Below are positions 57,001 through 60,000 of a DNA stretch of 64,000 bases, piece by piece (positions within the stretch are counted from its first letter, which is position 1; each line of letters opens with the position of its first letter). The stretch is taken from contig JAVRCJ020000015.1 in the NCBI GenBank assembly GCA_034530875.2, positions 133,580 through 197,579 on the forward strand, read 5' to 3'. This DNA comes from Nostoc sp. DedSLP01 (GTDB taxonomy: Bacteria; Cyanobacteriota; Cyanobacteriia; Cyanobacteriales; Nostocaceae). The position numbers were made by a program.

Positions 57001-60000
57001 GCACCCTTTAGCCTGTTGTAAAATAGACATCAGAAGGATTCGGGGGACCATTTAACTGGTCAGAAACGCCTATAGAGACTATCTTTGGAAATCTCCAAGG
57101 TCTAAAGACCAGCCAGCTGAAACAACTACAGCGGCTTTATCACCAGCGCATCCCAGGCGATCGCATCACCACGCCTGAGTTTTCCCAGCGTCTGGCAGCA
57201 ATTAGCACAGAAGTCAATCAGCCTGTATGTGCCTACCTCAACCGTCGCGGACAAGTGATTCGCGTGGGGGTAGGTACGCCGCGTCAAACACAAATTCCAC
57301 CACTGGAATTGCCGCGTTACGGTGCTGAGCGACTTAGCGGTGTTCGTTGTATCGCCACTCATCTAAAGTCAGAACCGCCCAACGAAGCGGCACTCACGGC
57401 TATGGCGCTCCAACGCTTAGACGCTCTAGTTGTGCTAAATATTACTGGTACGGGATTTACGCGTCGGGGAGGCGGCGCTACTGGGTACGTCAAAGAAGCT
57501 TATTTAGCTCATTTGACACCCCAAGACTCTCGCACCTTGATTACCACTCCTGCGGGGTTGAACATAGACCAGAAGCAAGTCCAATCTCCGAGTTGGAATA
57601 TATCGCCGCCTCTTGGTTTAGAGGATCTGGCACAGCACGATTTGATCGACTTAGTGGAAAATCTGGAAGCGGAATTCCAGCGCGAATTTATCGCCCAGGA
57701 AGTAGATGCCGATCGCGATCGCGTGTTAATTGTGGGGTTAATGACTGATGAAATGACCCTGCAACAATTCCAAGACACCATAGCAGAATTAGCGCGTTTA
57801 GTTGATACGGCTGGGGGAGAGGTATTGCAGACAATACAACAAAAGCGATCGCGCATTCATCCCCAGACAGTAGTCGGGGAAGGTAAGGTGCAAGAAATCG
57901 CCCTCACAGCCCAAACACTAGGAGTCAATCTCGTTGTGTTTGACCGCGACCTTTCGCCCTCCCAAGTCCGCAACCTAGAAGCGCAAATTGGCGTGCGCGT
58001 AGTTGACCGCACCGAAGTAATTTTGGATATCTTCGCCCAACGCGCTCAGTCCCGTGCTGGTAAATTGCAAGTAGAACTAGCACAGTTAGAATACATGCAG
58101 CCGCGACTGGCTGGTAGAGGTCGCGCCATGTCCCGACTCGGTGGTGGTATTGGGACTCGCGGCCCTGGTGAAACTAAACTGGAAACTGAACGACGTGCCA
58201 TCGGGCAGCGGATTTCCCGACTGCAAAAAGAAGTCAACCAGTTACAAGCGCATCGTTCCCGCCTACGACAGCGACGACAGCATCGAGAGGTTCCCTCAGT
58301 AGCTTTAGTTGGGTACACCAACGCTGGTAAATCTACTTTGTTAAATGCTCTAACAAACGCAGAAGTTTATACAGCCGACCAGCTATTTGCTACTCTCGAT
58401 CCTACTACGCGCCGCTTAGTAATTCCTCACGGCGAAACTGATGAACCCCAAGAAATTCTCATAACAGATACAGTAGGGTTCATACACGAACTGCCTCCAT
58501 CCTTAATGGATGCCTTCCGCGCCACCTTAGAGGAAGTCACAGAAGCTGATGCCTTATTACATCTGGTAGATTTGTCTCACCCAGCTTGGTTGCGACATAT
58601 TCGTTCAGTCCGAGAAATCCTCGCGCAAATGCCAGTTACTCCTGGGCCCGCACTGGTTGTTTTTAATAAAATCGATCTAGCTAACAGCGAGATTCTAGCT
58701 TTAGCAAGAGAAGAATTTCCCCTAGCAGTATTTATTTCCGCCAGTCAGCGGTTGGGATTAGAAACCCTACGCCAGCGCCTTGCTCAATTGATTGAATATG
58801 CCGTTGACTCTCGGTAAATACCGTAAGAAACTTGGAATTTTTAGTTGAAAATGCCGTAGCTATATTAGCTGCGGCATTTTTTCTTGAAAATAACAGATAT
58901 TTCTCCTTTACTTTACTGAAGCTTTATCGGATTATGTGGAATTTGCTGAATGACAATATAGGAAAATACGTGCTAAAACAATTTATTAATAGTATTTTTC
59001 TGTTTATAACTAATACAGTAATTATATTTATTTTATGGATAAAGCCTAATAATATATAAGACTTTCACTTCTTAACTGATTATTAATTAATTTGACAAGT
59101 ACTGTATTAGCCTTTCAGGAAAACTTTTAAAATTTTCTCACTTATCAATATCTATACAAAGGAAAGTATATGCCATTGGCCTCACAGCAGTTTGAGTCCA
59201 AAGATGTCAAAGTTCAGCTTCTTCTAGCTGGAGGACATCAACACACTGTTTATTTGAAATCAGATGCACCTCTCCTGCATAGTCTTTTAACAAAAATTGT
59301 GGCTCGTGCATACAAACAAGACTCTGAGTTAGAGAATTTATTCCAAATTCCTATTAATGAAGGTCGCTCGGTTTTATGTTTTCCTAGCGAACATCTTATA
59401 GGCGTGGTTACAGAACCCCCAATCTTTATACAACAATCAGAGAACATACAACTTGAAAGTAGTTATATTGAGGCTTCTGATTATATCCATATAGATAATT
59501 TTCTGACGCCCGAAGAACACAAACGTTTACTCAAATATGTTCTAGAAAAAGAATCAAATTTTTTGCCAAGCAATACTTCTACAAACGATATTAATTATCG
59601 GCAATCATTGGTTCTTTACTCATTCCCTGAATTTTCTGAATTGATATTAAAGAAAATTCAAGCAATGATTCCTGATATTATGAGCAAATTAAACATACCA
59701 TCGTTTTCTATATCACAGATTGAAAGTCAACTAACTGCACATAATCATGGTAATTATTACAAAGTTCATAATGATAATGGCAGTCCAGATACTGCTACCA
59801 GAGAACTAACATACGTTTATTACTTTTATCAAGAACCAAAATCATTTTCTGGTGGCGAATTGCGAATATACGATAGCAAAATTGAAAATAACATCTATGT
59901 AAATGCTGAGACATTCAAAACAGTTGAACCTCGAAATAACAGCATTATATTCTTCCCCAGCCGCTATTTACACGAAGTACTGCCTGTGAATTGTCCCTCT

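Follow-up and report, generated by a model that had tools for sequence, protein, structure and literature searches.

Where does translation of hflX begin in Nostoc sp. DedSLP01, and what could it mean that the codon which appears to open the gene is neither ATG, GTG nor TTG? The window that we analysed is a 64,000-nt stretch of contig JAVRCJ020000015.1 (positions 133,580 to 197,579, forward strand), and positions below count from its first letter.

The hflX frame and its N-terminal domain

The open frame runs from 57027 to the stop codon at 58815-58817. Its product matches the TIGR03156 (HflX) model with 471.2 bits over residues 217-573, against a cut-off of 216.75 that no other protein of the genome passes, and carries the Pfam domains GTP-bdg_N, GTP-bdg_M and MMR_HSR1 at residues 235-322, 324-402 and 410-533; by family cut-off and domain set it is an HflX GTPase. 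No relative was found among viral contigs. The HflX proteins of E. coli and mycobacteria split 70S ribosomes (excerpts of PMC4770234 and PMC12493154), and the long form encoded here would be expected to do the same.

Reading back from the ATA to the nearest in-frame stop (Table 1), we found no ATG, GTG or TTG, and the first canonical codon in frame is a GTG at 57255, 61 codons 3' of the ATA, followed by another at 57264, 64 codons 3'. A start at ATA 57072 would give the N-terminal peptide METIFGNLQGLK. The first-pass annotation had the gene begin at an ATA opening IETIFGNLQG, and this is borne out at 57072-57074, with no canonical codon back to the TAG at 57024. Its figure of 64 codons upstream of the existing call fits GTG 57264, whereas the distance to the first canonical GTG is 61. 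That shorter call is also not the only one, as the deposited protein for this locus has 581 residues and opens with METIFG. Of the 120 proteins nearest to it, most of them NCBI Nostoc records, 119 likewise have METIF or METIY at the N-terminus. A start at this codon is therefore already part of public annotation: the 581-residue NCBI 'GTPase HflX' records of Nostoc spp. have the same METIF/METIY N-terminus as the one inferred here, but they show it as M, and the codon, its conservation and any regulatory reading are absent from them.

Table 1. Features of the hflX locus, in window coordinates
Feature	Position	Strand	Basis or remark
-10-like hexamer TAAAAT, 47 nt 5' of the ATA	57019..57024	+	sequence; implies a 5' leader of ~40 nt
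In-frame TAG, 16 codons 5' of the ATA	57024..57026	+	sequence
Putative leader hairpin GACCA / TGGTC, ending ~10 nt before the start	57046..57061	+	covariation on 50 loci
ACG CCT: near-cognate codon -2, candidate alternative start; pyrimidines at -3..-1, U at -1	57066..57071	+	sequence and class comparison
Inferred initiation codon ATA, opening IETIFGNLQG	57072..57074	+	frame reading and homologue comparison
61 codons 5' of GTG 57255, probably coding; predicted helices 13-24 and 35-48, strand 52-57	57072..57254	+	codon-position differences and structure model
N-terminal domain of ~200 residues, missing from E. coli-type HflX	57072..57713	+	no family match; fold comparison
HflX core (GTP-bdg_N, GTP-bdg_M, MMR_HSR1) and stop codon	57720..58817	+	Pfam / NCBIfam domains
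Intrinsic-terminator-like hairpin and T run just 3' of the stop codon	58849..58883	+	-23.8 kcal/mol, z -6.7

The 61 codons that such a start adds bear the marks of translation. Over 142 loci, differences from Nostoc sp. DedSLP01 at codons 2-61 amount to 0.206, 0.079 and 0.577 by codon position, and the first 61 codons are free of stops in all of 147 loci. In a structure model of the protein the mean pLDDT is 90.6, with 91-98 over residues 1-80. Judged by these substitutions and by the model, the added codons evolve as coding sequence and are predicted to be part of a folded domain.

About 215 residues of the protein precede the TIGR03156 match, and neither an NCBIfam family for residues 1-143 nor a Pfam family before residue 235 was found. 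Foldseek gave no match at E 0.001, and searches for PDB sequence matches and structure-atlas matches to the domain were likewise negative. Fold comparison returned RadC (2qlc, Z 6.2, 104 aligned residues, rmsd 4.0) and JAMM1 (5ld9, Z 6.1), both middling scores, followed by deaminases (Z 5.3); the hhalign comparison with RadC was not significant (E 0.14, against 0.24 for an IF3 control). The domain is possibly of a JAB/RadC-like fold, with a metal motif that would be degenerate in cyanobacteria: the motif, which we take to be HxH...S/T..D, is lacking here, where the protein reads ATH, as cyanobacterial main copies mostly read ATQ, STQ, TTQ or ATH. An HTH-x6-(T/S/N)-x-(D/E)-D pattern was seen outside the class, where the Blastocatellia and metagenome sets had themselves been fetched with an HTH pattern. 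Derivation of the domain by duplication of the first domain of the HflX core was considered and rejected, as no internal duplication was found. Known HflX proteins under TIGR03156 share the same GTPase core, and their regulation involves heat-shock promoters in E. coli and antibiotics in Listeria and mycobacteria; the ~200 extra N-terminal residues of the long form compare with extensions of 39-58 residues in mycobacterial HflX (excerpt of PMC12493154).

The first codon and its surroundings in cyanobacteria

HflX residues 1-143 were matched in 217 of 251 genomes of the class (only 3 of 20 in family f8 and 4 of 19 in family f25, which does not imply that hflX is absent there). DNA was read for 190 loci, of which 130 come from the 150 listed matches and the other 60 from lower-scoring ones. 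One locus cut by a contig edge was left out; of the rest, 179 are main copies, spread over 36 families, and 10 are second copies. In the main copies the aligned first codon is ATC in 119, ATA in 26, ATT in 2 and another codon in 32, and never ATG; the 147 loci with ATC, ATA or ATT are hereafter called AUH loci. The 32 others were read by hand with hand-set offsets: six have ATC or ATT within two codons, 20 of the 179 most likely start at TTG or GTG one or two codons away (including 10/10 of family f27 and 4/4 of f8, both of which use TTG), and six have ATG at a shifted place (five from the mixed family f10, the sixth a broken copy). In 33 of the 36 families AUH is the most frequent start, counting one 1:1 tie. 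The second copies differ, with ATG in the aligned column in seven, ATG four codons upstream in one and ATC in two. The earlier statement that the first codon is never ATG thus applies to the aligned codon of main copies (0/179) and fails for the six shifted main copies and for 8 of 10 second copies.

Choice among the isoleucine codons is itself telling. ATT occupies 2 of 147 first codons, compared with 68 of 124 at the isoleucine of codon 4 and 682 of 1203 internal isoleucine codons (57%), while ATA accounts for 26 of 147 first codons and 51 of 1203 internal ones. As ATT is avoided at codon 1 and usual elsewhere, the constraint would act on the triplet and not on the residue; an isoleucine codon used as a start is thus found at the homologous position and kept as such. 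The control gene ychF begins with ATG in each of 30 genomes drawn from the same class; 25 of them have a pyrimidine at -1, which resembles the context of the hflX codon. In 90 of the 147 AUH loci no canonical codon occurs back to the stop, and 29 have one at -1 to -3. A screen of Nostoc sp. DedSLP01, which detects only extensions of at least 25 codons without a canonical codon upstream, gave 12 candidate AUH extensions among 5513 long frames, so at this length AUH starts are no genome-wide habit. The ATT bias, the ATG in the same column of the paralogs, the ychF control and the Shine-Dalgarno (SD) spacing and nearby stops of other lineages (described below) together give strong support, from sequence comparison, to a near-cognate start at this codon being under selection.

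The sequence upstream, previously described as unconserved, has recurring elements: a -10-like hexamer, a pyrimidine-rich stretch at -3 to -1 and a hairpin seen in part of the class. Of the 147 AUH loci, 115 carry a -10-like hexamer between -65 and -20, compared with 14 that have one in the control window -150 to -105; a consensus promoter scan, which also requires a -35 box, did not flag the TAAAAT of this locus, nor did the pattern scan flag the hairpin 3' of the gene. From these two elements hflX looks monocistronic, with a leader of ~40 nt. The leader hairpin occupies the site where other lineages carry an SD motif. It folds no better than shuffles as a single sequence (z -0.79), RNAalifold predicted no pairs on the hflX leaders and no Rfam match was found. 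Across 50 loci, which were picked by -10 distance and SD absence and whose structure was drawn by hand from the same rows, 84.7% of cells are paired, 5 of 6 pairs show two-sided changes and 0 of 500 shuffles score as high for pairing. Taken together, there is moderate support from sequence comparison for a conserved leader hairpin in part of the class.

At the start itself, the 147 AUH loci have T at -1 in 113 and G at +4 in 144, with C recurring at -2 and -3; T at -1 is found at 41% of 743 unambiguous ATG starts of Nostoc sp. DedSLP01. In E. coli, base-pairing between U at -1 and A37 of the initiator tRNA is possible and can aid translation (excerpt of PMC10018350), and such pairing might be used at the hflX start. 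An SD tetramer is present in 48 of the 147 loci, where it ends mostly 6-11 nt before AUH; Nostoc sp. DedSLP01 has no GGAG, GAGG or AGGA at -18 to -4.

Two other placements of the start have to be weighed. That translation begins at GTG 57255 or 57264, or that the upstream codons are joined to the frame by frameshifting, splicing or editing, seems to us highly improbable. The two GTGs are the first canonical codons of the frame, and some database entries begin at matching positions (e.g. P0123, P0129 and P0134), but variation in codons 2-61 falls mainly on third positions and never creates a stop, residues 1-61 are modelled as two helices and a core strand at pLDDT >90, and the -10-like box would leave no room for an upstream frame to be joined. 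Further to that, RNA-library contigs of relatives cross the hflX start without a joint, although these data (24 rows, all contigs, with shares of 0.06-0.10, four of them aligned at 80% likeness) cannot show a start. Initiation at codon -2 (ACG here, GTG or TTG elsewhere), giving M-P-I-E-T... either alone or beside AUH, we consider unlikely. This codon is start-like in 61 of 147 loci (ACG 24, GTG 16, AAG 8, TTG 6), a count that is 4-23 for the remaining upstream codons; TTG at -2 is the start used by families f8 and f27, and all three main copies in which the first codon has changed to GTC or GTT carry GTG or TTG at -2. Against it, 86 of 147 loci have no start-like codon at -2 and four carry a stop, an internal isoleucine would use the ATT that codon 1 avoids, the paralogs have ATG at position 1, and SD motifs ending mostly 6-11 nt before AUH are too close to -2; in Nostoc sp. 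DedSLP01 such a start would in any case remain non-AUG. From the class comparison, codon -2 may be a second weak start of hflX. Weighing the sequence data as a whole, we conclude that translation very probably starts at ATA 57072 and, in relatives, at the homologous codon.

Near-cognate hflX starts outside the class

The first-pass annotation had treated the unusual start as cyanobacterial, a limit that does not hold: of 207 loci read outside the class, 162 start at ATC, ATT or ATA. These sets are best matches to chosen queries and not even samples, and related loci within them are not independent. They comprise 80 named Acidobacteriota (Blastocatellia) loci (ATC 37, ATT 28, ATA 2, ATG 13), a phylum-wide sample of 37 loci (AUH 30, GTG/TTG 5, ATG 2; 51 of 151 genomes matched and 40 loci read, with two duplicates and one unpublished genome left out), 10 loci of the cyanobacterial phylum outside the class (AUH 6, ATG 4) and 80 metagenome loci (AUH 59, ACG 1, canonical 20), the last placed provisionally by their nearest named proteins (Desulfobacterota, Nitrospinota, Nitrospirota; ~50-80% identity). 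In 18 metagenome loci, probably close kin, a stop codon directly precedes the ATT or ATC, as read by eye. Database proteins give a similar picture, 51 of 119 non-cyanobacterial entries having isoleucine in the aligned column behind an upstream extension; among distant HflX representatives, 37 have M or L in that column and many others isoleucine behind an unconserved extension.

Outside the class the codon is accompanied by a strong SD motif: GGAG, GAGG or AGGA lies at -18 to -4 in 155 of the 162 AUH loci, GGAG ending 6-10 nt before the first codon in 132, whereas only 2 of 32 ATG loci have such a tetramer; 12 of 14 cyanobacterial ATG-type loci also have no SD motif. A rank test of SD against ATG gives p 4e-12 but ignores kinship, and on the tree the association reduces to 2-5 independent pairs of SD loss with ATG. 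The same tree (FastTree, 141 columns, 396 rows, unrooted) has 20 switches between AUH and canonical hflX starts. Within these sets the conserved near-cognate start of hflX, as recognised by sequence comparison, spans phyla and is not specific to cyanobacteria.

Initiation stringency or a fixed cap

IF3 keeps ribosomal subunits apart, and it also rejects near-cognate starts. As HflX splits 70S ribosomes, a shortage of IF3 would raise HflX. We propose that AUA 57072 (AUC in most cyanobacteria), used as a start, would give a 581-residue HflX with its extra N-terminal domain intact, and that the poor codon would be kept because output then stays low and dependent on start-codon checking by the 30S subunit. 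When IF3 runs short relative to ribosomes, subunits would rejoin as vacant 70S particles, near-cognate starts would leak through, and more HflX would be made to split them. In most cyanobacteria the ribosome would be positioned on the poor codon by the short leader, the pyrimidines at -3 to -1 and the G at +4; elsewhere, including Acidobacteriota and Desulfobacterota/Nitrospinota-like lineages, in which AUC, AUU and AUA starts would serve likewise, by the strong SD motif. To the explanation as a whole, a near-cognate start kept by selection and output set by initiation stringency, we give an even chance; granted a start at this codon, we lean slightly towards regulation through stringency rather than a fixed cap.

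The IF3 genes of the class bear on this proposal in two ways. Nostoc sp. DedSLP01 has two. The second gene was said to begin at a conserved ATC, and this was confirmed in 11 of 11 loci, always followed by G and in 10 lying behind GAGG or GGAG; in Nostoc sp. DedSLP01 the ATC (C23:117639, minus strand) is not preceded by GAGG or GGAG, and TTG and GTG occur further upstream in frame. Main-type IF3 genes, by contrast, all offer an in-frame ATG, GTG or TTG no more than 20 codons from the conserved core (35 of 35 loci; ATG in 24, by eye; ATG CCT GTG near the core in this genome), so for the main infC the class gives no evident sign of the textbook autoregulation loop, in which an AUU or AUC start of infC is the target (excerpt of PMC5499595). 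When IF3 was present at tenfold excess in E. coli extracts, translation of an AUU mRNA fell by about half to >60% and that of an AUA mRNA by 0-25%, AUC being outside the set (same excerpt). The stringency reading appears weakened by the canonical starts available to the main infC, by the small response of AUA in those extracts and by the avoidance of AUU in cyanobacterial hflX. Thus, of the earlier suggestion of fidelity control as for infC, the selected near-cognate start stands; infC-type control stays conjectural, given the canonical codons of main IF3 genes (35/35), the weak response of AUA to IF3 and the SD loss that goes with ATG (30/32).

The near-cognate codon would lower hflX output, and the whole pattern could reflect nothing but a fixed dosage cap, in which an excess of a ribosome-splitting GTPase is harmful, any weak start suffices and IF3 has no regulatory part. 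We rate this as a real prospect, somewhat short of even, and it fits most of the data as well. It accords with the ATG versions without SD in 30 of 32 non-oxygenic and 12 of 14 cyanobacterial loci (2-5 independent pairs), with TTG in families f8 and f27, and with several Desulfuromonas-like loci whose canonical starts sit directly behind a terminator-like hairpin and T run (by eye). Published excerpts fit too: AUA is nearly insensitive to IF3 in E. coli extracts (PMC5499595), near-cognate starts in S. aureus yield ~10% of AUG output (PMC13009471), and a relation between weak starts and SD strength has been reported generally (PMC5622118). However, a weaker SD would be a simpler route to low output, a strong SD with a near-cognate codon across phyla (20 switches in 396 rows) is the layout of infC, and the second IF3 gene has the same ATC-G start. 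Returning to initiation stringency, we tentatively extend it as follows: long-form HflX may be the second translation factor after IF3 with a cross-phylum near-cognate start serving as a stringency sensor, tying ribosome splitting to the IF3/ribosome ratio, and in oxygenic cyanobacteria this sensor may survive as a 'pyrimidines-AUC-G' start common to hflX and the second IF3 gene, in which AUU is avoided and, for hflX, an SD motif is mostly missing.

Conserved near-cognate starts are already known as a kind (infC, pcnB, cvfC1, ccpN, dnaA), and to our knowledge infC is the only one known to span phyla. Like hflX, infC (E. coli; AUA in S. aureus and probably Deinococcus-Thermus) encodes a translation factor with a conserved isoleucine-codon start behind a strong SD (excerpts of PMC5499595, PMC2830850 and PMC13009471). 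HflX, however, is not a start-checking factor, so any loop would be indirect, and cyanobacterial hflX uses AUC or AUA, avoids AUU and lacks an SD motif in two thirds of loci. Output-limiting near-cognate starts are likewise conserved in E. coli pcnB (AUU), S. aureus cvfC1 and ccpN (AUU, AUA; strong SD) and Deinococcus dnaA (ATC), but each of these is described from one genus or a small group of related taxa, while that of hflX spans at least two named phyla and metagenome lineages (excerpts of PMC13009471, PMC2830850 and PMC1780047). We found no published report of a non-AUG hflX start, cyanobacterial or other, in the literature searched, most subscription papers lying outside it. No paper was found on slr1521, which we take to be the Synechocystis hflX. 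The main text of the Synechocystis TIS-Ribo-seq preprint 10.64898/2025.12.20.695498 mentions none of hflX, slr1521, AUC, ATC and AUU; its section 11 discusses ATG, GTG, TTG and CTG and a single ATT, rejected there. The HflX review PMC12493154 mentions neither 'start codon' nor 'IF3', and hflX does not appear in the parts examined of PMC13339759 and PMC13515050.

What the present analysis adds is the identity of the codon and its conservation across phyla; the protein N-terminus was already implicit in NCBI records. Gene callers limited to ATG, GTG and TTG truncate HflX within the N-terminal domain or give it spurious extensions, a point of practical weight in cloning and proteomics. As few conserved near-cognate starts are known in bacteria, hflX would add a second translation factor to them. 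In tractable cyanobacteria it would provide a direct test case of fixed caps against IF3-linked sensors, and it bears on how ribosomes reach a poor codon where no Shine-Dalgarno motif guides them. The comparison of sequences suggests that the near-cognate start of hflX may be an old way of limiting or tuning the amount of a ribosome-recycling protein.

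Near-cognate starts among paralogous genes

An ATG, GTG or TTG is available in 35/35 main-type cyanobacterial IF3 genes, a set made up of the copy in the Nostoc genome (contig C3, 306391-306891, minus strand) and loci L411-L441 and L452-L454. The second IF3 paralog, represented by the same genome (contig C23, 117639, minus strand) and L442-L451, has an ATC-G start in 11/11. Judging from these sequences, it is the accessory paralog that appears to bear the near-cognate start among cyanobacterial IF3 genes.

A second long-form hflX was found in 10 genomes of the Cyanobacteriia (L126, L132, L136, L158, L165, L168, L171, L178, L180 and L182). 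Of these copies, 8/10 start with ATG and mostly lack a Shine-Dalgarno (SD) motif; the two from family f30 start with ATC. A further hflX copy, L169, is a broken gene or an assembly error. Elsewhere in the Nostoc genome, a frame on contig C6 with an ATC is another candidate for AUC initiation (see table).

Features discussed, with their positions
Feature	Position	Strand	Details
PIN-domain gene (Pfam)	window 56016-56682	-	divergent from hflX; short frame ahead of gene
hflX leader hairpin	window 57046-57061		alignment A6
HflX N-terminal domain, ~200 aa	window 57072-57713	+	predicted model, family searches
383-aa frame	window 60500-61651	+	long Ala-Pro repeats; tail VPEP...LGLLGLG..KK
343-codon frame	Nostoc genome (G000), C6:38913	+	ATC behind GAGGT; 69 coding-like codons before first canonical codon
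hflX copy L169	another genome, G007:C1:1267873-1268273		ATG at -1; frame ends after 107 codons

Leaders and neighbours of hflX

In some members of the class the proposed leader hairpin has pairs in which both sides have changed, and hairpin and SD motif nearly exclude each other, occurring together in one locus. ATG-start hflX copies of Blastocatellia (L212-L219, L237, L241, L242, L245, L246, L281 and L282) lack the SD motif and carry a TATAAT, TAAAAT or TAGAAT hexamer about 10-17 nt before the ATG; here the layout of SD plus ATC/ATT/ATA start seems to have given way to a very short leader. Inspection by eye places a terminator-like hairpin with its T run immediately upstream of Desulfuromonas-like copies that have ATG/GTG/TTG starts (L337, L338, L342, L345, L351, L364, L367, L377 and L381).

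The PIN-domain gene and the short frame preceding it, a putative antitoxin with no Pfam match, look like a VapBC-type toxin-antitoxin pair. The tail of the 383-aa frame resembles a PEP-CTERM sorting signal.

The N-terminal domain of HflX

No Pfam or NCBIfam family matched this domain, and the folds nearest to its predicted model are RadC and JAMM (Z about 6). HTH-x6-(T/S)-x-D-D is present in homologs outside the class, of which the Blastocatellia and metagenome sets had been selected with an HTH pattern. Cyanobacterial main copies mostly have ATQ, STQ or ATH at the HTH position, as if their metal site had been lost. The domain probably occurs in tandem too, with five similar stretches in database protein P0138 (1090 aa) and four in P0139 (869 aa).
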